Assembly: GCA_001823065.1 (NCBI GenBank)
Contig: MHTJ01000003.1
Location: forward strand, 253,283-317,282
Length of the DNA stretch: 64,000 nucleotides
Source: Candidatus Vogelbacteria bacterium RIFOXYD1_FULL_44_32
Lineage (GTDB): Bacteria > Patescibacteriota > Minisyncoccia > Phycocordibacterales > XYD1-FULL-46-19
Direction of reading: 5' to 3'
Positions 571-53,004 of this stretch are shown one piece after another. The translations under genes and the position numbers were made by a program. Within the stretch, counting starts at the first letter, position 1. Each line of letters starts with the position of its first letter. The notes under the pieces are model-generated. The model did not search any database. It worked only from the letters and a program-made list of their open reading frames with translations, and had not been told where the DNA came from.

Positions 571-1905
571 GTGTCAGAAGAACTTACCAATAATCATAAG
601 AAGAGTTTGCGCGAAATTTTACCAAAAGGGAACGGTCGATCATATCGCCGTTCTATCCCTTTTAATCCTGGCACAATTGGCCAAGAGGAAGAGGGAGTTA
701 ATAACCATATTGCGGGGGATGCGGAAGCTATCCTTCGCTCACGCCGTATGCCAAAAATTCCAAAATATCTGATTTGGGGGCTAGGACTTGCCTTCATCAT
801 AATTATAGTTTTTGTGGTTAGCTCTGTTTTTGCTCAAGCGACTGTCTATATATCACCCAAACAAGCCAAAATAAATTTGACAGAGACTTTTACGGCCTAT
901 CAATCGGCCGCCGCGGGCGAGTTGGAATTCGGAACAATTACCAATTCAATTTCAGAAGCAGTCGTTGTTAAAGCTTCAGGAACTAAAGATGTAGCTGAAA
1001 AAGCGACTGGTCAAATAACAATTTTCAATGATTTTAGCTCGGAACCACAAACTCTAATCGCCAAGACCCGTTTTGAGACTAGTGATGGTAAAATTTTTCG
1101 CATTACTAAAGAAGTAGTGGTTCCGGGCCAAAAGATTGAAACTGGTAAATCTACCCCCGGGCAGGTTACCACTACTGTTGTAGCCGATGTCGCCGGAGCT
1201 GAATATAATGTCGGTCCAGCGGAATTTACTATTCCAGGGTTTAAAGACACTCCTCGTTATGATAAATTCTCCGCTCGCTCCAAAACAGCCATGGTTGGCG
1301 GGTTGGTTGGCAAAACTAGTACTATTTCCGAAACTGATCGCCAGGACGCAGAGGCTGAATTAAAACAAAAATTAGCTACAAAATCTGGCGACAAATCAGC
1401 TATTACGGTCCCGTCTGGACAAATCCTATTCAAAGATTCTTTGTTGACCAGCACCACCTTTGAAACAAAAGCTGGATCAAAAAGTGGTGAAGCCCAAGTC
1501 GTCGGCACACTGACCTATACTGGGATTGTGTTTAATGAAGAAAAGTTGGCTGGCTATCTCGCTTCTCGCTATATTCCTGATTATGATGATGAGCCAGTTA
1601 CAATTGCCAATGAAGATGCCTTAAATTTAACTATTGTTGATAAAGATAAAATTGACCCTCAAGCACTAACTGAAATAAACATTAAAGCGGGCGGAACTGC
1701 ATACCTAATTTGGCAGGTTGATATTGCTGGGTTTAAAAAAGCTTTGACTGGCTACAATAAAGGAAATTTTGAAATGGCCTTGGCCGATTTTCCAGCCATT
1801 GAGAGCGCTAAACTAAAGCTATCTCCACCGTGGGCCTCATCCATACCAGATGATACTGAAAAAATTACGATTGAGGAGGTGCTTCAAGGTGAAACAGCTA
1901 AATAA
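571..1905 (+). CDS. hypothetical bitopic membrane protein (about 60-aa cytoplasmic N-terminus, one TM helix, about 370-aa extracytoplasmic domain); possibly pilus-assembly related given the upstream PilM-like gene
   Basis: 444-aa ORF with GTG start. Hydrophobic segment YLIWGLGLAFIIIIVFVVSSVF. A GGAGG lies about 15 nt upstream, so the exact start is uncertain. Confidence 0.55.
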   Translation: MSEELTNNHKKSLREILPKGNGRSYRRSIPFNPGTIGQEEEGVNNHIAGDAEAILRSRRMPKIPKYLIWGLGLAFIIIIVFVVSSVFAQATVYISPKQAKINLTETFTAYQSAAAGELEFGTITNSISEAVVVKASGTKDVAEKATGQITIFNDFSSEPQTLIAKTRFETSDGKIFRITKEVVVPGQKIETGKSTPGQVTTTVVADVAGAEYNVGPAEFTIPGFKDTPRYDKFSARSKTAMVGGLVGKTSTISETDRQDAEAELKQKLATKSGDKSAITVPSGQILFKDSLLTSTTFETKAGSKSGEAQVVGTLTYTGIVFNEEKLAGYLASRYIPDYDDEPVTIANEDALNLTIVDKDKIDPQALTEINIKAGGTAYLIWQVDIAGFKKALTGYNKGNFEMALADFPAIESAKLKLSPPWASSIPDDTEKITIEEVLQGETAK

Positions 1906-1971
1906 TAGTTATTCCTATCGACATCTTGACTAATATTACCAAAATCTGCTACTATATATCGGGTATCAAAA

Positions 1972-2205
1972 ATGAATACCAATAAAGAAGGCTCGACACC
2001 AAAAAGTGGCGAGCAGATAGTGTCTGGTGTGGTTTTGGAGGCATTGCCTAACACCCACTTTAAAATAAAGGTGGGTGATAATGTTTTGCTTTCATATCTC
2101 GCTGGCAAGATGCGTTTACACCGAATTAGAGTCTTGGTTGGCGACAAAGTAGAGGTTCTCCTCGATTCATATGGTGGCAAAGGCAGAATTATAAAACGGT
2201 TGTAA
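1972..2205 (+). CDS. infA: translation initiation factor IF-1
   Basis: 77 aa. S1-like OB fold sequence GVVLEALPNTHFKIKVGDNVLLSYLAGKMRLHRIRVLVGDKVEV is typical of IF-1. It lies immediately upstream of rpmJ as in the conserved cluster. Confidence 0.9.
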   Translation: MNTNKEGSTPKSGEQIVSGVVLEALPNTHFKIKVGDNVLLSYLAGKMRLHRIRVLVGDKVEVLLDSYGGKGRIIKRL

Positions 2206-2222
2206 TTTATTGTTTATATAAG

Positions 2223-2339
2223 ATGAAAGTTCGGTCAACAATCAAGCAACGTTGTCCACAGTGCAAGATGGTAAAGCGTCGTGGTCATCTATACATAATT
2301 TGTAAGAATAAGCCTCGACATAAGCAGAAGCAGGCTTAA
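2223..2339 (+). CDS. rpmJ: 50S ribosomal protein L36
   Basis: 38-aa ORF MKVRSTIKQRCPQCKMVKRRGHLYIICKNKPRHKQKQA with CxxC...C...H zinc-ribbon pattern. It is too short for the ORF track and was found by reading the infA-rpsM spacer. Confidence 0.9.
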   Translation: MKVRSTIKQRCPQCKMVKRRGHLYIICKNKPRHKQKQA

Positions 2340-2352
2340 TTTAATTTATTAT

Positions 2353-2733
2353 ATGTTACGTATTTCTGGTATTACAATTCCTGATAATAAAAGACTAGAG
2401 ATCGGTCTGACCGCTATTTATGGTATTGGGCGTAATCGCGCTAAATCCATTCTTAATAATCTCAAAATTGAACACGGTCGCCGTCCCGCCGAACTTTCAG
2501 CTGGTGAGGAAAACGATATTCGTAAAGCTGTCGAAATATTTAAAATTGAGGGTGACCTAAAACGAGAGGTTAGTGGCAATATTAAAAGATTGAAGGATAT
2601 TAAATCCTATGTCGGCATTCGACACACTCGTGGGTTACCAGTCAGAGGCCAAAGAACCAAAACCAATGCGCGGACTCGTAAAGGTCCTAAAAAGACTATG
2701 GGTTCAGGTAAAAAGAAAGTTGATAAAAAATAA
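2353..2733 (+). CDS. rpsM: 30S ribosomal protein S13
   Basis: 126 aa with a lysine/arginine-rich C-terminal tail. The family match (MLRISGITIPDNKRLEIGLTAIYGIGRNRA) is unambiguous. Confidence 0.95.
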   Translation: MLRISGITIPDNKRLEIGLTAIYGIGRNRAKSILNNLKIEHGRRPAELSAGEENDIRKAVEIFKIEGDLKREVSGNIKRLKDIKSYVGIRHTRGLPVRGQRTKTNARTRKGPKKTMGSGKKKVDKK

Positions 2734-2740
2734 TTAATTT

Positions 2741-3172
2741 ATGGGAAAAAAACGAATTATTAAGCAAGGCGGTCATGATTCAGGGGGAGCAAAAACCCGG
2801 GCTCTTGGTCGAGTGTCAAAAAAGAAAATTGAGCTGGGGATTTTGCACGTCAAGGCCACCTACAACAATACGGCCCTCCTCCTCACCGATGCCACAGGCA
2901 ATGCCATTTTGGCCTCATCGAGTGGGGCGCTAGGTTACAAAGGTTCTAAGAAAGGAACGCCCTACGCGGCTGGTAAAGTCGGTGAGCTCCTAGCCGAAAA
3001 GGCTCAAGCGATGGGTTTAAAGGAGGTTGATGTGATTATTAGGGGTGTCGGTTCGGGTCGAGAATCATCCGTTCGGTCTTTTATTGCTAAAGGAATAAAT
3101 ATTTTGTCGATAAAAGATAAAACACCGGTGCCGTTTAATGGCCCGAAGGCTCCGAAGCCAAGACGGGTTTAA
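2741..3172 (+). CDS. rpsK: 30S ribosomal protein S11
   Basis: 143 aa. Conserved S11 core GILHVKATYNNTALLLTDATGN...GYKGSKKGTPYAA. Confidence 0.95.
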   Translation: MGKKRIIKQGGHDSGGAKTRALGRVSKKKIELGILHVKATYNNTALLLTDATGNAILASSSGALGYKGSKKGTPYAAGKVGELLAEKAQAMGLKEVDVIIRGVGSGRESSVRSFIAKGINILSIKDKTPVPFNGPKAPKPRRV

Positions 3173-3196
3173 TTTTAATTTAATTTTTTTAATACT

Positions 3197-3817
3197 ATGG
3201 GACTTCGCATTGGACCAAAATATAAAATTGCTCGCCGGTTAGAAGAAAAAATATTTTCTAAAACCCAGACGACTAAATTTGCCATCTCTGGTTCGGAAAA
3301 AAGCGGTAAACAAGGTGGTCGGAAAAAAACTGTTAGTGAATACGGCCGACAGCTTTTAGAGAAGCAAAAAGCTAAATACACTTATGGTGTCAATGAAAGG
3401 CAGTTTTCAAATTATGTCAAAGAGGTGAGGGGTCTTAAAAATATTAATACCTCATCTGAAATGTTTAGACTACTTGAGTCCCGCTTAGATAATATTGTCT
3501 TTCGGCTTGGTTTAGCTAACTCACGCCTTTTGTCGCGGCAGATGGTCTCCCATGGGCATATTCTCGTCAATGGTCGGCGGGTCACAGTACCTTCGGCGCG
3601 GGTGCGAATCGGCGACAAAATTTCGGTCCGAGTTCAAAGCCAGCAAAAAGGAATGTTTGCCAGTTTAGCAGAAAGATTAAAAACCTATACCACACCAAAT
3701 TGGCTAATATTTGATGATAAGAGTATGGCCGGTGAAGTGAAGGGTAGTCCGGAGTATGGAGGAAACGAATCCAATCTTAATTTCGCTTCAATCCTGGAGT
3801 TTTACAGCCGGGTTTAA
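3197..3817 (+). CDS. rpsD: 30S ribosomal protein S4
   Basis: 206 aa. S4 N-terminal region and S4 RNA-binding domain (LESRLDNIVFRLGLANSRLLSRQMVSHGHILVNGRRV). Confidence 0.95.
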   Translation: MGLRIGPKYKIARRLEEKIFSKTQTTKFAISGSEKSGKQGGRKKTVSEYGRQLLEKQKAKYTYGVNERQFSNYVKEVRGLKNINTSSEMFRLLESRLDNIVFRLGLANSRLLSRQMVSHGHILVNGRRVTVPSARVRIGDKISVRVQSQQKGMFASLAERLKTYTTPNWLIFDDKSMAGEVKGSPEYGGNESNLNFASILEFYSRV

Positions 3818-3859
3818 AACGATTTATTTTATTTATTAGTATAGCCTAGAAACCCAACT

Positions 3860-4843
3860 ATGCCTGATTTTAATATCATTTTGCCATCCAAACCAATCAT
3901 CGTCTCCGAAGGGGACAATTTTGGGGTGTATGAAATTGAGGGCCTTTATCCCGGATACGGTCATACCTTAGGTAACTCTCTGCGCCGGATTATTTTGTCC
4001 TCCCTACCCGGCTTTGCTGTTACAGCAGTAAAAATAGACGGGGCCAATCATGAGTTTGCGACCCTCGATGGTGTTAAAGAAGATGTGATTTCGATTGTGC
4101 TAAATCTCAAAAAATTAAGATTTAAGGTAGTAGGTGATGATAAAAAAATTGTTACTATTGACTGTTCTGGTATTAAGGAAGTAACCGCCGGTGATATTAA
4201 AACCAGTGGTGATGTTGAAATAGTCAATCCAGATTTGTATATTGCTTCAGTAACTGAAAAGACCGCTAGCCTAAAGATTGAATTAACTCTAGAAAAAGGG
4301 ATGGGGTATGTGCCGAAAGAAGTGCTCCAAAAAGAAAAAGTAGATATCGGAACTATTGCGCTTGATGCTATCTTTACACCTATTCGTCGCGCTAGTTATG
4401 AGGTTGAACAGATGCGGGTTGGTAATCGTACTGATTATAATAAACTTAGGGTTTCGATTGAAACTAATGGCGATGTTTCCCCTCGGGAGGCACTTGAACA
4501 ATCTATTGCTATTATGATCAATCAGCTTAAAGCAATTGTTGGCTTTAAAGAGGACATCGAAGATTTAATAGTGGAAAATGCTGGCACCAATTCTGATGTG
4601 GAAAAGGAAATGGAGGGTGCCCTAAATTCCGAACCGGAAGATGAGGATGTACTAAAGACAAGAATTGACGATTTGAACCTTTCCGGCCGAACTCAAAAAG
4701 CCCTAGCCAATGCTAGTATTCGAACTGTCGGTGGGTTGATTCGCAAAAAAGAAAATGATTTACTAGACATCGAAGGTTTGGGGGATAAGGGTGTACAGGA
4801 GATAAAACGGGCCTTATCAAACTTTGGCATTTTGCTTAAATAA
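3860..4843 (+). CDS. rpoA: DNA-directed RNA polymerase subunit alpha
   Basis: 327 aa. N-terminal dimerisation domain (GVYEIEGLYPGYGHTLGNSLRRIILSSLPGFAV) and C-terminal alpha-CTD helix-hairpin-helix (DLNLSGRTQKALANASIRTVGGL). Confidence 0.95.
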   Translation: MPDFNIILPSKPIIVSEGDNFGVYEIEGLYPGYGHTLGNSLRRIILSSLPGFAVTAVKIDGANHEFATLDGVKEDVISIVLNLKKLRFKVVGDDKKIVTIDCSGIKEVTAGDIKTSGDVEIVNPDLYIASVTEKTASLKIELTLEKGMGYVPKEVLQKEKVDIGTIALDAIFTPIRRASYEVEQMRVGNRTDYNKLRVSIETNGDVSPREALEQSIAIMINQLKAIVGFKEDIEDLIVENAGTNSDVEKEMEGALNSEPEDEDVLKTRIDDLNLSGRTQKALANASIRTVGGLIRKKENDLLDIEGLGDKGVQEIKRALSNFGILLK

Positions 4844-4851
4844 TCCTAAAT

Positions 4852-5202
4852 ATGCAACACCACGGACATACCAGTAAATTAGGGCGAAAAAGCGGCCCGC
4901 GCGAGGCGCTTATTCGTGGTCTCGCTAAAAGTCTAATCGAAAAAGGTCGGATCAAAACGACCGAAGCCAGAGCCAAAGCTTTACGACCATATGTTGAAAA
5001 ATTGGTGACCATAGCCAAAAATAATACAGTCACCGCCAAACGAACTGTGACCGCCCGTTTGGGTGGGGAGGTAAAACTAGAAAAATTGTTCAATGAAATT
5101 GGCCCCCGCTATAAAGAAAGAGCGGGGGGCTTTACCCGTATTATAAAAATGCCCGCCCGCGCTGGTGACGCTAGCCCGCAAGCTATTATTGAATTTGTCT
5201 AA
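4852..5202 (+). CDS. rplQ: 50S ribosomal protein L17
   Basis: 116 aa. Pattern RKLGRKSGPREALIRGLAKSLIEKGRIKTTEARAKALRPYVEKL is typical of L17. Confidence 0.95.
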   Translation: MQHHGHTSKLGRKSGPREALIRGLAKSLIEKGRIKTTEARAKALRPYVEKLVTIAKNNTVTAKRTVTARLGGEVKLEKLFNEIGPRYKERAGGFTRIIKMPARAGDASPQAIIEFV

Positions 5203-6814: not shown

Positions 6815-7378
6815 GTGATGATTAAAAAGCCCTCAACAGATAGCCATAATAGCGATGACTTTACCTTTGAAGATGAGGAAGCCAGCGCTGATATTGCCAA
6901 AAAACTAAAACAGCTACGGGACAAACTAAAAAACAGCGAGGAAGAAAAGATGACCAACCTGGCCGGTTGGCAGAGAGCCCAAGCCGACTACTCTAATTTA
7001 AAAGCCAATAGTGAAAAAGAGCGACAGGTACTAGCGGAAATAATTAAAGCCGGGCTAATTGATGATTTTATTCCGCTGGCCGACAGCTTTGCTATGGCGA
7101 TGGCCAACCACGAGGCTTGGGAGGCCGTGCCGGCCAATTGGCGCAAAGGAGTTGAACATATTTACAGTCAATTAGGAAATATTTTAGCTAATCAAGGTGT
7201 AGAAGTTATTGACCCGATTGGTAAAATATTTGACCCGATTTGGCATGAGTCGGTTGGGCTAGTGACCACCACTAAACCAGACGAGGATCATATGGTTTTA
7301 GAAGTTATTAAGAAGGGTTATCGTTTAGGTGAGAGGATTATTCGCCCCGCGCAGGTCAAAATAGGGGAGTACAAGTAA
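6815..7378 (+). CDS. grpE: nucleotide exchange factor GrpE
   Basis: 187 aa. Coiled-coil N-terminus then a GrpE C-terminal beta-domain (LADSFAMAMAN...GVEVIDPIGKIFDPIWHESV). It sits immediately upstream of dnaK. Confidence 0.9.
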   Translation: MMIKKPSTDSHNSDDFTFEDEEASADIAKKLKQLRDKLKNSEEEKMTNLAGWQRAQADYSNLKANSEKERQVLAEIIKAGLIDDFIPLADSFAMAMANHEAWEAVPANWRKGVEHIYSQLGNILANQGVEVIDPIGKIFDPIWHESVGLVTTTKPDEDHMVLEVIKKGYRLGERIIRPAQVKIGEYK

Positions 7379-7430
7379 AATATGTTAAAATTAAATTCAG
7401 TCATTAATAATCTAAATTAAATAATACGCT

Positions 7431-9320
7431 ATGGCAAAAATACTTGGCATTGATTTGGGAACTACCAACTCCGCAATGGCGTACGTGGAGGGTGGCCAAC
7501 CAAAAATTATCGAAAATAGCGAGGGGGCGCGAACGACGCCTTCGATTGTCGCTCAATCAAAAACCGGTGAACGCCTCGCCGGCCTTTTGGCCAAACGCCA
7601 AGCTGTGACCAACCCACAAAACACTATTTATGGGGTCAAGCGCCTTATGGGTCACAAATTTGAAGACCCCCATGTGCAAAAAGACAAGGGGCTGGTTTCT
7701 TATACTATTGAACGCTCCGACGATGGTGGGGTCAAAGTGGGTATGGGCGACAAAAAATACCGGCCCGAGGAAATTTCGGCCATGATCTTGTCTAAGTTAA
7801 AGCGTGATGCTGAAGCTCATCTCGGTGAAAAAATCGAGGAGGCGGTTATTACCGTGCCAGCTTATTTTGATGACTCACAACGCAAAGCCACTAAAGATGC
7901 CGGTGAAATCGCTGGTTTCAAGGTCCGCCGGATTATCAACGAACCTACTGCCGCCGCACTTGCCTACGGCCTCAACAAAAAGAAAGATGAAAAAGTTGTA
8001 GTTTATGACTTTGGGGGTGGGACTTTTGATGTATCAGTCCTTGATATTACTGGCGAAGGTGGTGAGCAATCGATCGAAGTAAAGTCAACCGACGGTGATT
8101 CGCATATGGGCGGTGAAGATATTGACCAAAAAATTATTGAATGGCTATTGCACGAATTTAAGGCCGAAACCGCTCTCGACATTTCCAAAGACCACCTCGC
8201 TTTACAACGACTCAAAGAAGCCGCCGAAAAAGCTAAACACGAGCTTTCTAGTGCCGTAGATTCGGAAATTAATATTCCCTTTATTACATCCGATGTCTCT
8301 GGCCCCCAGCATCTAGTCAAAAAAATGACCAGAGCCAAGCTCGAAGAAATCGCTGATGAATTTATCAAAAAATCAATTGAGATTACTAAGCGAGCGGTAG
8401 ACGCATCGGGCTATAAACTTGGTGATATCAACGAGATTATTTTAGTCGGTGGTCAAACACGGATGCCTGGTATTCAGGAGGCGGTGAAAAATCTGTTTGG
8501 CAAAGAGCCAAACCGCTCCATTAACCCCGACGAAGTGGTGGCGATTGGCGCCGCCGTGCAGGCTGGTATTTTCCAAGGTGATGTGAAAGATGTGCTTCTA
8601 CTTGATGTCACCCCGCTTTCTTTGGGGATTGAAACTCTCGGTGGAGTCGCCACTAAGCTGATTGACCGCAATACTACTATTCCCACCTCGCGCAGCCAGA
8701 CTTTCTCCACCGCCGCCGACAACCAGACTTCGGTCGAGATTCATATTGTCCAAGGCGAAAGGGAGATGGCCGCCGATAACAAGACATTGGGGCGCTTTAT
8801 TTTAGACGGTATTCCACCCTCACCTCGCGGTCTACCGCAAGTTGAGGTAAGCTTTGATATCGACGCCAATGGTATTTTGTCAGTCAAAGCCAAGGACAAA
8901 ACTTCTGGTAAAGAACAGTCTATTCGCATTGAGGCCCAATCCTCATTATCTAAAGAGGATATTGAAAAAATGAAGGCCGAGGCACAAACACATGCCGACG
9001 AAGATAAGAAAAAACGCGAAATTGTTGATGCTAAAAATACCGCCGAGCAGATGATTTACACCGCCGAAAAATCACTTCGTGATGCAGGAGATAAAATCAC
9101 AGCCGAAATAAAGGCGGAGGTTGAGGAAAAAATAAAAAATCTTCGTGAGGCCAAAGATAAAGAAGACTTAGAATTGATAAAAAATACCACCCAAGAACTT
9201 TCCACCGCGATGATGAAAATTGGCGAAGCGATGGCTAAAGCGGGTGAGGCCGATAAAACTGCGCCAGAAAACAAGGAGGGGGAGGTGCGGGAGGCGGAGA
9301 CGGAAGAGAAGAAAGATTGA
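7431..9320 (+). CDS. dnaK: molecular chaperone DnaK (Hsp70)
   Basis: 629 aa. Hsp70 signatures [20 protein letters not shown] and [15 protein letters not shown], plus an EEVD-like acidic C-terminus. Confidence 0.97.
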
Positions 9321-49547: not shown

Positions 49548-49651
49548 TGTAAATCACCTCCTTTCAGTTTTTCTATTTAAATTACTACAACAAAAAAATA
49601 CTCACGTCAAGAGTTTTTAATTGGGAACTATATACTTAATTACCCTAGGGA

Positions 49652-49840
49652 TTAATATGACCTATCAGGGCTACCAACAACTTCTCTGGCATCCAGGTAC
49701 TGATTACATTCATATTCAGAAAAACCATAACAAGTTCCTCCTTCGTCATATAAACCAGGTTCTTGGCGAATAAACATTCCATAGATTACGGCTCCAATTA
49801 AAAGCGCTAGCGCTAATAAAAGTCCTAATCCGTCTTTCAT
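49652..49840 (-). CDS. IS passenger: 62-aa membrane peptide with a Cys-containing tail (GGTCYGFSEYECNQY)
   Basis: Its ATG overlaps the stop of the upstream 45-aa ORF (ATGA), and its stop lies next to the left IR. Confidence 0.45.
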   Translation of the reverse strand: MKDGLGLLLALALLIGAVIYGMFIRQEPGLYDEGGTCYGFSEYECNQYLDAREVVGSPDRSY

Positions 49841-49974
49841 TTTTTCTTGGACTTAACTTTTAATGTTTTCTTATCCTTATACCCAGAACCAGCAATAGCC
49901 CCTAAGACTTGGTCAAAGGAGGCTGGTACTGGTTCGTGTTTCTTTGGTTTTCGTCCCCTAGTTTCTTTTTTCAT
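49837..49974 (-). CDS. IS passenger: 45-aa highly basic peptide
   Basis: MKKETRGRKPKKHEPVPASFDQVLGAIAGSGYKDKKTLKVKSKKK. Overlaps the end of the 170-aa ORF and is coupled to the next ORF by ATGA. Below the ORF-track cutoff. Confidence 0.4.
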   Translation of the reverse strand: MKKETRGRKPKKHEPVPASFDQVLGAIAGSGYKDKKTLKVKSKKK

Positions 49975-50470
49975 CAGGTTTATCTAAGTCTTCTGGCTTA
50001 AAGTTGTATTTCTCTAATAAAATATCTCTGAAATAAATACCCCCTATCCTACGCATTGTTTCAATACTCCAACCATACAAGAAAGAACTTTGCTTTATTT
50101 TTTCGTTGAAATCTCCAAAATCCACAGAGTCGAATAATTTAAAAGCACATTCTTGAATGTTGTATTGATTTTGTATATCATTTTTTGTCTCACATTCCAT
50201 AAGTAGTTTTCCTTTATTTTTGTCTATCCAGTCTTTTAGTCCACTTTCTTCTAATGCTTTAATCCCAGTTGGTTTTAATGCAATGGGAGAAGCGTTAGCA
50301 AAAGCATCATTCATTCTTCCTTCAAGTTTTGTAATACTTTCTTTAATCCAAGTTATCGAAGTTTCTATAGCAGAAAAACGACTGCCTGATTTCCACGCAA
50401 TAACAATGAGAGCACCCATTATGCCCAAAAAATAAATCCAGTCTATTTGTATTACAAGAGGCTCAGTCAT
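49958..50470 (-). CDS. IS passenger: 170-aa protein with an N-terminal TM helix, no recognisable family
   Basis: Lies 20 nt downstream of the transposase stop on the same strand. Confidence 0.55.
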   Translation of the reverse strand: MTEPLVIQIDWIYFLGIMGALIVIAWKSGSRFSAIETSITWIKESITKLEGRMNDAFANASPIALKPTGIKALEESGLKDWIDKNKGKLLMECETKNDIQNQYNIQECAFKLFDSVDFGDFNEKIKQSSFLYGWSIETMRRIGGIYFRDILLEKYNFKPEDLDKPDEKRN

Positions 50471-50490
50471 AAATATATTATAACAGATAA

Positions 50491-51375
50491 CTAAGCAGTT
50501 AATTGTTTATATAATAATTTATCACTTTTTGCAATTTTTAGTGTCACTAGGTCGAATTTCTCGGCTAGACTATCTTGACGGTTATTGAAGCGAAAGGTTA
50601 TTTCATCAATGTAGCGCTGTAAGTGCTTTTTACTCATTGAGTGATAGGTACCGTGATAATTACGCTTAAACAAAGCCCAGAAGCTCTCGATTGAGTTGGT
50701 GTGGACATTGCCACGGACATACTGCTTGCGACTGTGTTTAATTGAATCGTGCTTAAAGCCAATCCGAACTAGTTTACGATAAACACCAGCGTCATCGGTC
50801 ATTAGATAGGCTTTAGGATTAACATTTTTTGTTACCGCATTAAGAACGGTGTGTGTCTGACGGTCTGGGATTTGGAAAGCTCGAAGTTTACCGCCTCGCT
50901 CTGTCATTCCCATAACAGCCGACTTTTTTGAGAAGCCGTGTTTGCGATTATGCTTTCCACCTAGATAGGTTTCGTCAATTTCTACAGTACCAATCAGTTT
51001 ACCTTTATTTTGCTTTAGAGCTTCACGAATACGCATATCCATAAACCAAGCGGTCTTTTGGGTTACGCCGACTTGCTCGGATAAGTAAATTGAAGAAACT
51101 CCCTTTTTAGAAGTTGTCAGAAGATAAATGGCAATAAACCATTTTTGCATCGGGATTTTGCTTTCACCAAAGAGGGTGCCTGTCTTAACAGTGAAGTCTC
51201 GTTTACAGCTATCACAACGAAAGCGTTTACCGTCTTTGAAACGGAAAATCTTATTGTGCTTACAGTGAGGGCAATAGTCCCCACCAGCAAAGCGCACATC
51301 CTCAAAGTGCTTTCGACAGACTTCCTCGTTGTGGAAGTGGGATATAAATTCGGCTAAGGTCTTAAAGTTTGTCAT
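50491..51375 (-). CDS. IS1595-family (ISXO2-like) DDE transposase
   Basis: 294 aa. N-terminal zinc ribbon CPHCKHNKIFRF...FRCDSCKRDF, then IPMQKWFIAIYLLTTSKKGVSSIYLSEQVGVTQKTAWFMDMRIREA and the DDE core (TVEIDETYLGGK...). Confidence 0.92.
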   Translation of the reverse strand: MTNFKTLAEFISHFHNEEVCRKHFEDVRFAGGDYCPHCKHNKIFRFKDGKRFRCDSCKRDFTVKTGTLFGESKIPMQKWFIAIYLLTTSKKGVSSIYLSEQVGVTQKTAWFMDMRIREALKQNKGKLIGTVEIDETYLGGKHNRKHGFSKKSAVMGMTERGGKLRAFQIPDRQTHTVLNAVTKNVNPKAYLMTDDAGVYRKLVRIGFKHDSIKHSRKQYVRGNVHTNSIESFWALFKRNYHGTYHSMSKKHLQRYIDEITFRFNNRQDSLAEKFDLVTLKIAKSDKLLYKQLTA

Positions 51376-51814
51376 ATTTATAGCTTATACCTATTCGATA
51401 GGGTTGTCAAGTTCCTTAAATAAATAGGGGTAGGTTGACAGCTTTTCTAGATTTGGTATTATTTACGGTAGCCTTTCACAATAAGTGGGACTGGTACTCC
51501 CCAATAAGAAGCAAACCAAAGACAGAAACCTGTCTCAAGTGTGGCGTGGGTATCTAAAAGTACCATACGCCTAGTGCGTATTCCCGAAAGGGTTTGCTCA
51601 CCTACGTCACACTTGGAACGGGTTTTTTCTGTAAACGAAAACACCCCCGTGAGGGGGCGGTAAGGTGACTGGAAGCCGGAAACTATCAAAATGGGGATAA
51701 GGGAGAGACAGACTCCCAAAACTTGTACAAGGTCCCAAGTCCTACTGCAGTAGGGCGAACTAAAGCTTCGAAGCGTGTCACTTTAATTCCTCCTCCTTGG
51801 GGGTGTTTTTGTAA

Positions 51815-51900
51815 GCGCCGATGACGAAAATGGTATCCGTCCTCGTTCTGTAAACGAGGGTTCCTCCCAGAACTTACGGGTTCGAATCCCGTTCGACGCA
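51815..51900 (+). tRNA. class II tRNA-like element (long variable arm), possibly a pseudo-tRNA, inside the IS
   Basis: Canonical T-arm ACGGG-TTCGAAT-CCCGT. Acceptor GCGCCGA/TCGACGC has one C-A mismatch. 3-bp D-stem with an 11-nt D-loop as in tRNA-Leu/Ser/Tyr. 17-nt variable arm. The anticodon loop TCTGTAA has C at position 33, so identity is unclear. Confidence 0.3.
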
Positions 51901-52085
51901 CAGAGTATTGACGAAAAGCGTCATCTGTATCCTAGCAGGATATGGGGACTTTGTCAATATTCAAAGTATAACACTTGGGGAGTTGTCCACGCCAACATTT
52001 TTATCAATTTTTCTGTTGATAAGGTGTACAGGGGCTATAATGGCAGCTTTTTATTATGGTAGGCGTAGTATGTTATAGTTAAGAA

Positions 52086-52244
52086 ATGACAATTATACCC
52101 TATATTATATTGGCAGTTTTGCTTTTTGGTTTGTTTAATGCCTACAGAGATTTTAAGAGTCAAATCGGATGGCTACATAGAAGGTTGGAGAAATTGGAGA
52201 AGAAAGTTGGTATTAGTGAGAAGGAAACTCAAGATTTACTCTAG
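52086..52244 (+). CDS. IS-internal small membrane peptide (52 aa)
   Basis: MTIIPYIILAVLLFGLFNAY... N-terminal TM helix and a charged C-terminus. Confidence 0.35.
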   Translation: MTIIPYIILAVLLFGLFNAYRDFKSQIGWLHRRLEKLEKKVGISEKETQDLL

Positions 52245-52293
52245 GGTAACGGATATAAATTTTAGAAAACATTAAAAGGTATAAAAATAAAAA

Positions 52294-52458
52294 ATGACAT
52301 TAATAATTATATTAGCTTTGGCTGTAATAATCTTTGGCCTTTTTGTTATAAGTAAGCAGTTAGGTGATACTTATAAATTACTTGACGGAAAGTTTAATAA
52401 TAATAAAGACGAGTCAGAAATTGTTGGTAAAAAGCATAAAATTGATTTAGAAGCCTAG
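52294..52458 (+). CDS. IS-internal small membrane peptide (54 aa), paralogous in architecture to 52086-52244
   Basis: MTLIIILALAVIIFGLFVIS... Its stop lies inside the right terminal repeat. Confidence 0.35.
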   Translation: MTLIIILALAVIIFGLFVISKQLGDTYKLLDGKFNNNKDESEIVGKKHKIDLEA

Positions 52459-52595
52459 GGTAATTAAGTATATAGTTCCCTTTTAATTTGTATTTTTCCC
52501 AACTTAGAGAGCTTCCTTCCTTTCCGACCACTGTAAAGGGATAGTAAAAATCAAGGGGTGAATAAACAGGCCGGTGGTCAATGATATTTTTTCTA

Positions 52596-52991
52596 CTAAT
52601 ATTTAGCCACCTTAGATTTTAGGTTAAACTGAAATATTATCTCAAATAAAGATAAAGCTATGGGCAGAATAATGTATGGCATCCATAATATATAATATAC
52701 AAAATCAGTTAAAAGTAGATAAATAAGCCAAATTAAATCAATAATAAATAAAATGTTCAATAAATAAGGCACTAGAGCGATATTTAATTTTTTAAAAATA
52801 CATATTGATATGTAAATTCTATTTGCAAACAAAAGAATAAAAACACCTACCCACAAGAAAAAGCGTAGTGGTACCGAATTTATATTAGCAAAACTACTAA
52901 TAAATAAAAATAAAAAAGAAAAATATAAAAAAATGACAAAATAAGCAAGATTAGAAATTATAAGATAATCTTTATTTATTATATTTATCAT
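52596..52991 (-). CDS. hypothetical polytopic membrane protein in an extremely AT-rich (about 22% GC) block
   Basis: 131 aa, very hydrophobic (Ile/Leu/Phe-rich). Lies between the IS and lysS. Confidence 0.4.
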   Translation of the reverse strand: MINIINKDYLIISNLAYFVIFLYFSFLFLFISSFANINSVPLRFFLWVGVFILLFANRIYISICIFKKLNIALVPYLLNILFIIDLIWLIYLLLTDFVYYILWMPYIILPIALSLFEIIFQFNLKSKVAKY

Positions 52992-53004
52992 AAAAATTTA
53001 TTTT

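Follow-up and report, generated by a model that had tools for sequence, protein, structure and literature searches.

An insertion sequence (IS) of the IS1595 family, located at 49623..52480 (2858 bp) in a 64,000-nucleotide (nt) stretch of DNA from 'Candidatus Vogelbacteria bacterium RIFOXYD1_FULL_44_32' (contig MHTJ01000003.1; the whole stretch is hereafter called the window), carries beside its transposase gene a gene for a class II transfer RNA (tRNA) with a tRNA-Leu-type body and the threonine anticodon UGU. The reading that we favour, to which we assign a probability of about 0.55, is that this element-encoded, anticodon-mismatched tRNA recodes, or makes ambiguous, one sense codon (ACA) in the element's own transposase gene. 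This model is suggested by the conservation of the tRNA in related elements, by the identity of its body and by the distribution of ACA codons in the transposase genes that accompany it.

A tRNA gene carried by related IS1595 elements

The tRNA gene occupies 51815..51900 on the plus strand (86 nt). ARAGORN called an 87-nt tRNA with anticodon TGT at 51815-51901 (+) and no tmRNA, and the Rfam tRNA model RF00005 matched at 38.5 bits (gathering score 29, E = 3e-6) when positions 51000-52400 were scanned under permissive filters with E values up to 10; the default filtered scan missed the tRNA, and the relaxed scan otherwise returned weak chance matches only. Relatives reach 50.2 (L002) and 53.4 bits (L003) with the same model (related loci are designated by L numbers throughout). 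With an ARAGORN call and a score above the Rfam cut-off, the 86-nt class II tRNA-like fold put forward in the original prediction is real, and its details were found where they had been placed: an acceptor stem GCGCCGA/TCGACGC with a single mismatch (C4-A69), a 3-bp D stem with an 11-nt loop, an anticodon arm CTCGT-TCTGTAA-ACGAG in which position 33 is C, a 17-nt variable arm (51859-51875) and a T arm ACGGG-TTCGAAT-CCCGT (51876-51892). The discriminator is A73, and CCA is not encoded.

Relatives of the transposase were fetched from genomes, metagenomes, assemblies holding exact homologs and viral contigs, and 18 distinct related Patescibacteria elements were found to carry the same kind of class II tRNA. 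A covariance model built on seven tRNA copies (R1) scores the family members at 62-96 bits. When 17 copies were aligned, 98.1% of cells were paired, both sides had changed in 19 of the 22 pairs, and four helices were backed by covariation; none of 500 shuffled controls reached this level of pairing, and sliding the 3' partners left 31-48% paired. The discriminator A73 is invariant across the 17 aligned copies even though the acceptor stem is freely variable, and G18-G19 and a canonical T loop are kept in the family. Comparison with other copies of the element, proposed together with the original prediction, thus shows a region that is not unconstrained, its cloverleaf having been preserved through compensatory substitutions among 17 diverged copies.

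Of the 18 copies with a Leu-type body, 17 have the anticodon UGU and one (L003) has UGA; the loop is usually YUUGUAA. Position 33 is U in 15 of the 17 aligned copies, C33 being confined to the window and L119, and A37 is the usual residue, with G37 in three copies (L096, L099 and L120). The L094 tRNA (2259-2346) has an 8-nt anticodon loop (CUUUGUAU), and the anticodon stem of the L098 tRNA (2407-2488) is weakly paired. The C4-A69 mismatch is unique to the window copy; the rest of the family shows clean stems and U33.

Given a contig of sufficient length, essentially all elements with a transposase at least about 59% identical to that of the window have the tRNA, and no such tRNA was found in the ~130 more distant IS1595-relative loci examined. 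Its placement differs among elements, being divergent from the transposase gene (as in the window), upstream on the same strand, or downstream beside the inverted repeat (IR). The tRNA is a hallmark cargo of one Patescibacteria-specific IS1595 subfamily.

To which amino acid the body belongs was evaluated by scoring host tRNAs with R1. Ordinary tRNA-Leu genes of related loci are the next-best matches of the model, at 52-74 bits; the genes that flank the IS in L121 and L039 reach 66-74, and L121 has both tRNA-Leu(UAG) and tRNA-Leu(UAA) close outside its IS. Scores for other host tRNAs are 45-46 bits (tRNA-Ser), 40 bits (tRNA-Tyr) and 38-49 bits (ordinary tRNA-Thr, L056). As judged from its class II architecture, A73, Leu-type D arm and R1 scores equal to those of host tRNA-Leu, the body of the element tRNA is of the tRNA-Leu type. 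The variable region measures 13-22 nt in the family and contains a covarying stem, which is not the class I short-loop architecture of bacterial tRNA-Thr. The anticodon, on the other hand, is a threonine anticodon (NGU) and not a leucine anticodon (NAG or NAA), and a Leu-type body with a Leu anticodon was found in none of the elements examined.

LeuRS and SerRS, the leucyl- and seryl-tRNA synthetases, ignore the anticodon in model bacteria, and the pairs G1-C72 and C2-G71 are identity pairs of the threonyl-tRNA synthetase (ThrRS) in E. coli. Among the 17 aligned copies, acceptor pair 1-72 is G-C in 14, G-U in two and C-G in one (L016), and pair 2-71 is C-G in 13, G-C in three and G-U in one. 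Because the body is of the Leu type with A73 and LeuRS is anticodon-blind in model bacteria, the element tRNA would be expected, by E. coli identity rules, to carry Leu, possibly also Thr through ThrRS recognition of G35-U36.

With regard to the origin of this gene, the IS ends 80-90 nt from a host tRNA-Leu gene in two unrelated loci, namely L039 (tRNA at 4562-4643, IS end at 4472, anticodon CAA) and L121 (tRNA at 2396-2476, IS end at 2317, anticodon UAG). This adjacency makes capture of a flanking host tRNA-Leu gene a plausible origin of the cargo tRNA; alternatively, it may reflect a target preference of the element.

Distribution of ACA codons in the transposase genes

Codon usage was analyzed over the transposase genes, using statistics that ignore shared ancestry and rest on the saturation of the other synonymous sites. 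In the first 15 genes, threonine conservation at ACA positions is 24%, compared to 49-70% at ACC, ACG and ACT, and no comparable gap was observed for other A-ending codons. The 49 relatives lacking the tRNA show no such split (36% at ACA, 33-38% at the other Thr codons). The major codon averages 54% over 86 conserved four-fold columns, indicating that synonymous sites are saturated, and yet five of these 86 columns use a single codon in at least 95% of sequences, four of them being ACA; a fifth ACA column stands at 12 of 14. Similar results were obtained for a 10-member core clade, in which pairwise third-base identity is 0.36 and the fully locked columns comprise five ACA columns and one GGT column.

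Over 17 UGU-type elements, the ACA-major columns contain 84 ACA codons versus 5 other Thr codons, while the nine other conserved Thr columns contain 5 ACA codons versus 139 other Thr codons; in the tRNA-less relatives, ACA accounts for ~20% at conserved Thr columns. ACA has thus gone to fixation at five codons while all but disappearing from conserved Thr codons, and on the simplest account it is not synonymous with ACC, ACG and ACT in these transposase genes, the element's own tRNA being its reader. The non-synonymous use of a codon by the element's own gene, which codon reassignment requires, was thus found both in these counts (84:5 versus 5:139) and in four hydrophobic columns classed as Thr-free in relatives.

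The locked positions, all on the minus strand in the window, differ in what relatives have there. At codon 87 (51115..51117), each of the 18 UGU-type elements examined has ACA, L003 has TCA and L122 has ACT, and the tRNA-less relatives use all four Thr codons there. At codon 158 (50902..50904) these relatives have V, L, I, K or R and never Thr (0/49), and at codon 278 (50542..50544) they have L, V or I, again never Thr (0/49). Codon 174 (50854..50856) corresponds to ATG (Met) in the nearest tRNA-less relatives, with Thr in 4/49, and codon 182 (50830..50832) to V/A/K, with Thr in 1/49; the latter is a leucine codon in L121 (CTT) and L122 (CTA). On this comparison, codons 158, 174, 182 and 278, together with several singleton ACA codons that also fall in L/I/V/F columns, would fit a hydrophobic residue.

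The pattern is specific to the element. Two of the five ACA codons of host dnaK encode positions at which 87-96% of 119 homologs have Thr, which indicates that the host reads ACA as Thr, and the ACA share of host genes (15%; 119 of 777 Thr codons) is similar to that of other A-ending codons. A host-wide reassignment of ACA was rejected on these grounds. A codon-usage difference, commonly why mobile elements bring a tRNA, is present too: ACA makes up 13 of 35 Thr codons in the IS genes. The three DUF5343 cargo genes available in related elements are too few and too diverged for a test of ACA locking.

Four elements fetched after the pattern had been defined (L119, L120, L121 and L124) all have ACA at codon 87 and, with one exception (L121), avoid ACA at conserved Thr codons. 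ACA is also present at codons 158, 174 and 278 in L119, L120 and L121; L124 has ordinary hydrophobic codons at these sites. In the element with the UGA anticodon (L003), codon 87 is TCA and codon 158 is TTG (Leu); this element also uses ACA at an ordinary Thr column that UGU-type elements avoid. A further variant, L122 (transposase 63% identical), has within the IS a tRNA with acceptor strand GGAAGUG, G73, a 21-nt variable arm and the Leu anticodon UAA; as R1 gives it just 39 bits, this tRNA is of the Ser type. Its transposase gene is without ACA locks (ACT at codon 87, ACA at one conserved Thr) and has TTA at an A/S column in which the closest relatives have Ser and at two further polar columns, TTA being used at two conserved Leu positions as well. 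Taken together, these sequences suggest that codon and anticodon co-vary: UGU with ACA, UGA with TCA in L003, and UAA with TTA and a lack of ACA locks in L122. Because LeuRS and SerRS are anticodon-blind in model bacteria, all three body/anticodon combinations (Leu/Thr, Leu/Ser and Ser/Leu) would mis-assign a codon.

Leader RNA, element structure and cargo

The tRNA appears to be the 3' end of a larger transcription unit. A sigma-70-type promoter (51435..51462, plus strand; TTGACA, 16-nt spacer, TG-n-TATTAT), divergent from the transposase gene, is predicted from its consensus match, which is the best in the region (11/12 positions plus an extended -10) and is directed into the leader and tRNA. 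Between this predicted promoter and the tRNA lies a structured leader of ~345 nt, which gives a whole unit of ~430 nt. Plus-strand RNA of 51465-51905 folds at -161.9 kcal/mol (z = -4.5, 100 shuffles; z = -2.6 for the minus strand). The suggestion that the tRNA-like element forms part of a larger IS-encoded RNA accordingly gains ground from its position at the 3' end of the predicted unit and from compensatory changes in the leaders of L096, L120 and L108. The 51440-51905 region had been described as lacking a convincing open reading frame (ORF), which agrees with our analysis: the minus-strand frames 51459-51719 and 51686-51901 are open and have no gene support, protein homologs not having been sought, and the homologous leader of L096 has a different set of open frames.

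Leader domain 1 (51526..51625, plus strand) forms a long, imperfect hairpin; its arms measure 26 nt, and a U run comes after it. An nhmmer search found no homolog of it beyond the locus of the query; only the architecture (long hairpin and U run) recurs: a comparable hairpin of 25-30 bp precedes the tRNA in relatives, but its sequence cannot be aligned to domain 1. In elements with a cargo ORF in the position of the leader, just such a 25-30-bp hairpin lies between ORF and tRNA.

Leader domain 2 (51636..51810, plus strand) is closed by a long-range pairing of 51641-51669 with 51777-51806. This helix includes ACACCCCC (51641-51648) paired with GGGGGTGT (51799-51806), which is the long-range complementary pair noted in the original prediction, and the CCCCC-GTGA-GGGGG hairpin described there is likewise present (51644-51657). 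In the folding model, this hairpin and a second G+C hairpin at the other end of the domain (51788-51803) could form as an alternative to the long-range helix. The domain also encloses the hairpins GGGAG-AGACAGA-CUCCC (51701-51717), CCUAC-UGCA-GUAGG (51741-51754) and GCUUCGAAGC (51765-51774). Homologs were found in L096 (nhmmer E = 2e-27), L108 (E = 0.009) and L120 (by eye), and 16 of 38 predicted pairs show compensatory changes across the four sequences. The Rfam scan of 51000-52400 (E up to 10) yielded no family for the leader. A Twister-P5 match (20 bits, E = 0.22) was rejected, as it depends on GGUCCCAAG, which is not kept in L096, L120 or L108. Also rejected was the leader as a decayed gene: L001 and L002 have a 255-aa DUF5343 ORF at this place, and the best tblastn match of it to the window element has E = 3.6. 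A pattern of leader motifs (GAGACARAC...AAGTCCT...GGGCGA) had four matches in viral contigs, which we take as chance; the one in L117 is protein-coding, and no Rfam match was found at any of them.

Three leader hairpins (51722-51731, 51741-51754 and 51765-51774) are perfect DNA palindromes (CTTGTACAAG, CCTACTGCAGTAGG and GCTTCGAAGC, respectively), and the homologs have palindromes of other sequence. Because the hairpins are perfect palindromes, their loops are self-complementary, and they could permit loop-loop dimerisation or protein binding. On the minus strand, the first G+C hairpin of domain 2 (51642-51659) is followed by a T run, as is also the case in L003, L013 and L108; by its sequence, it resembles an intrinsic terminator that would act on transcripts antisense to the tRNA. 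A promoter-like site on the minus strand of the window (51957-51929) is directed into the tRNA. The repeated motif reported earlier is an exact 12-nt repeat, TTCTGTAAACGA, at 51627-51638 and 51846-51857, through which the leader duplicates the anticodon loop and 3' stem of the tRNA, C33 included. Such a leader copy is absent in L096 and, within its locus, in L119, which also has C33. In L001, L002, L016, L093, L098, L120 and L124, a conserved CTTGAC(Y) box lies directly 3' of the tRNA, within the trailer that pairs with the leader; judging from its distance to a TATNNT-like hexamer, it may belong to a promoter driving the small membrane-protein genes downstream. That the leader controls output or processing of the tRNA is a guess on our part.

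The source genome belongs to the Patescibacteria (candidate phyla radiation, CPR), transposase and DnaK of the window being 100% identical to proteins of the bacterium named above. The element is bounded by perfect 27-bp terminal IRs, GGGAACTATATACTTAATTACCCTAGG (49623-49649 and 52454-52480), with an 8-bp target-site duplication, TTTTAATT, outside both (49615-49622 and 52481-52488); it is the only copy within the window, and the core of its IRs recurs in related elements. Its transposase (50491..51375, minus strand, 294 aa) has a DDE_Tnp_IS1595 domain (Pfam E = 6e-43) and an N-terminal Zn_ribbon_IS1595 domain (3e-10), so that domains, terminal IRs and target duplication all place it in the IS1595 family. 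That its IRs are perfect, its transposase gene intact and a target duplication present makes the element look recently active.

Directly 3' of the transposase gene lies a small basic ORF (49837..49974, minus strand, 45 aa), kept after the transposase in 9 of 15 elements examined. This Lys-rich ORF (MKKETRGRKPK...FDxVLGAI...), which measures 40-50 aa among its homologs, overlaps or abuts the transposase stop in the window and in L003, L013, L016, L093, L094, L099, L102 and L108; the same motif forms the N-terminus of a methyltransferase in L004. A Pfam search gave no match for the several small ORFs of the window element. Across related elements, the cargo beside the tRNA varies (DUF5343/PDC-M34A, STAND ATPase, SLFN/AlbA_2 with HATPase, NYN nuclease, restriction-modification genes) and looks defence-like. 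In L004/L018, a related IS (898-4292) with a Dam-like methyltransferase and a restriction endonuclease interrupts a reverse-transcriptase gene (halves at 418-867 and 4175-4858), and the tRNA-bearing element of L097 (1-2100) has phage-like surroundings, with a GP3_package gene nearby and a second, truncated IS1595 transposase gene beside it.

Beyond the right end of the IS, the window is A+T-rich (52500-53000, GC 0.19-0.31) and has a 131-aa multi-pass membrane ORF (52596-52991, minus strand) with no Pfam match. A viral contig with a distant IS1595 relative (L153) carries at 7307-7484 two neighbouring suppressor-type tRNAs with anticodons CUA and UUA, which suggests a stop-codon-recoded phage not connected with the IS. 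Genes for tRNA-Ile with the anticodon UAU, a rare bacterial route to reading AUA, are found in the flanking host DNA at two loci from Saccharibacteria or CPR (L001, 6115-6187; L014, 7069-7142).

A model of sense-codon recoding, its alternatives and known systems

In the model that we favour, the tRNA would be transcribed from its own promoter as the 3' end of a structured precursor of ~430 nt, charged with Leu and perhaps also with Thr, and would decode ACA in competition with host tRNA-Thr. The transposase gene would have adapted by fixing ACA at five codons and purging it from conserved Thr codons. Because the element would recode or blur ACA for its own gene, correct production of its transposase would depend on its own tRNA. 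Expression, aminoacylation identity, actual decoding and a benefit to the element, be it self-dependence or regulation of the transposase, are what we infer here, the candidates for the amino acid inserted at ACA being Leu, Thr or both.

Several observations weigh against this model. A score of the Codetta type, by which all control codons decode clearly and correctly, assigns ACA no clear meaning (V +19, T -3 and L -63 by instance; T +0.8 by column), and a clean assignment of ACA to Leu is thus not backed. In relatives, codons 6, 87 and 152 are of the T/S type, for which Leu would be a strange replacement, and at the one conserved Thr of the small basic ORF, ACA is found alongside other Thr codons, which is how an ordinary Thr codon behaves. 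Competition for ACA is to be expected from host tRNA-Thr(UGU), and host ACA codons too would be mistranslated by a Leu-charged tRNA; mixed decoding by host tRNA-Thr and element tRNA would be a reasonable compromise. Several anticodon-arm features are unusual for an efficient elongator, namely C33 (window and L119), G37 (three copies), the 8-nt loop and the weak stem. The ACA statistics treat related elements as independent, the TCA of L003 could be an ordinary substitution, ACA to TCA being the only one-step Thr-to-Ser change, and the L122 case is one sequence.

A rather unlikely alternative is that the tRNA is cognate and serves supply or kinetic control, ThrRS charging it with Thr (with Ser in L003) by way of the anticodon and no amino acid being changed, so that fixed ACA codons mark sites at which decoding speed or tRNA dependence matters, for instance by coupling transposase translation to expression of the tRNA. 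With one count per column, Thr indeed fits the ACA columns better than any other single residue, and the T/S character of codons 6, 87 and 152, the ThrRS identity pairs G1-C72 and C2-G71 in 13 of 17 copies and the higher share of ACA in IS genes (13/35) than in host genes (119/777) point in the same direction; phage-borne tRNAs that match phage codon usage are a well-known precedent. However, cognate supply leaves unexplained both the purge of ACA from conserved Thr codons (5/144, versus ~20% in tRNA-less relatives) and the four locked columns that are hydrophobic and Thr-free in relatives. The T/I/V columns 176, 243 and 293 use ACC, ACG and ACT and never ACA, whereas the similar columns 158 and 278 use ACA only. 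Moreover, the acceptor pairs are not conserved (G2-C71 in three copies, C1-G72 in L016), and no element has a cognate combination of body and anticodon, that of L122 being a Ser-type body (G73) with a Leu anticodon.

More improbable, in our view, is a non-translational role, in which the tRNA-like element would be a signal for RNase P/RNase Z processing or for stability, an insulator between divergent units, or a decoy or spare for anticodon nucleases. A regulatory or processing element of this kind had been among the original suggestions. It would suit the invariable position of the tRNA after a long hairpin or structured leader, often directly after a cargo ORF, the leader/trailer pairing that lengthens the acceptor stem by ~15 bp in several copies, the defence-like cargo listed above, and anticodon-loop details more variable than in housekeeping tRNAs. 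Yet a processing signal needs no conserved anticodon, invariant A73, G18-G19 or canonical T loop, and neither the ACA partition nor its link to anticodon variants is predicted by it, so that the conserved anticodon and the matching transposase codons are not accounted for. The other suggestion, a decaying and functionless pseudo-tRNA captured at a former integration or insertion site, we consider very improbable. It draws on the C4-A69 mismatch and C33 of the window copy, on its passing Rfam just with relaxed filters, and on the IS ends near host tRNA-Leu genes in L039 and L121, but it fails at the level of the family because 17 diverged copies retain pairing in 98.1% of cells and compensation at 19 of 22 pairs, with no shuffle or register shift coming close; the conserved anticodon and discriminator and the recently active appearance of the window element speak against decay as well.

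If element-specific recoding is true, a mobile element of ~3 kb can locally alter the meaning of a sense codon, the synthetic-firewall trick of giving Leu and Ser bodies foreign anticodons already exists in nature, and annotation with the standard code may mistranslate these elements at defined sites. A broader proposal, which we hold tentatively and at somewhat less than even odds, is that this Patescibacteria IS family has a private dialect of the code, in which a body recognised by an anticodon-blind synthetase is combined with a borrowed anticodon (UGU, UGA or UAA) and the transposase is made correctly only with that tRNA. Such a dialect would be a natural counterpart of an engineered swapped-code lock, giving self-dependence or a dosage switch for transposition, and would also be a low-level source of mistranslation in the host. 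Consisting of one tRNA and one gene, the system is compact and open to direct testing. Even if the tRNA is cognate, a near-universal tRNA passenger of an IS subfamily and a conserved leader RNA of ~345 nt without an Rfam family would still be new. Within the literature searched, no report was found of an IS-borne or transposon-encoded recoding tRNA, a near-universal tRNA passenger or a structured IS1595 leader RNA.

The ISNwi1-type group (ISfinder) comprises IS1595-family elements with passenger genes. The window subfamily shares with them DDE_Tnp_IS1595 and zinc-ribbon domains, terminal IRs, an 8-bp target duplication and variable passengers, but appears to differ, as far as the literature searched goes, in having a tRNA as near-universal passenger and a structured leader RNA. 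Compared to bacterial tRNA-Leu, the element tRNA is akin in its class II architecture, A73, 3-bp D stem, GAAYUGGUA-type D loop and equal covariance-model scores; it is unlike it in its anticodon, which is UGU or UGA and not NAG or NAA, and in its location inside an IS.

Natural changes of sense codons are known for whole genomes and organelles, and element-specific recoding is known for phage stop codons: in alternatively coded phages (Lak, crAss-like), phage-encoded suppressor tRNAs recode stop codons. In both cases a mobile element has its own tRNA altering codon reading, and the codon use of its own genes is sensible only with that tRNA. Here, however, the carrier is a 2.9-kb IS, a sense codon would be concerned (ACA; UCA or UUA in the variants) at a few codons of one gene, and the host keeps the standard meaning of ACA. 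Natural anticodon-mismatched bacterial tRNAs, the allo-tRNAs, have reportedly been described by Mukai and colleagues in 2017, and Streptomyces has tRNAPro with Ala, Thr or Asn anticodons together with ProRS-x. As in our elements, body identity and anticodon disagree, anticodon-tolerant synthetases are exploited and missense decoding is predicted. The element tRNA differs in its canonical 7/5 cloverleaf, as opposed to the 8/4 or 9/3 of allo-tRNAs, in having no dedicated synthetase and in being tied to a transposase gene with co-evolved codons. A sense codon, an insertion sequence and co-evolved codons in the element's own gene are what is new relative to phage suppressor tRNAs and natural mismatched tRNAs, the kinds that come nearest to it.

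A further parallel is found in engineered codes with swapped Ser and Leu codons and in code-locking, in which Leu- or Ser-type bodies, served by synthetases that are blind to the anticodon, are given the anticodon of another amino acid and genes are made to depend on the tRNA (PMC11099018, PMC12269064). Literal natural counterparts would be L003, where a Leu body bears the Ser anticodon UGA, and L122, where a Ser body bears UAA, a Leu anticodon. As described there, the synthetic systems remove the competing host tRNA, whereas in the hosts of these IS elements the decoder is presumably present, and decoding of the element's codons would therefore be ambiguous and not clean.

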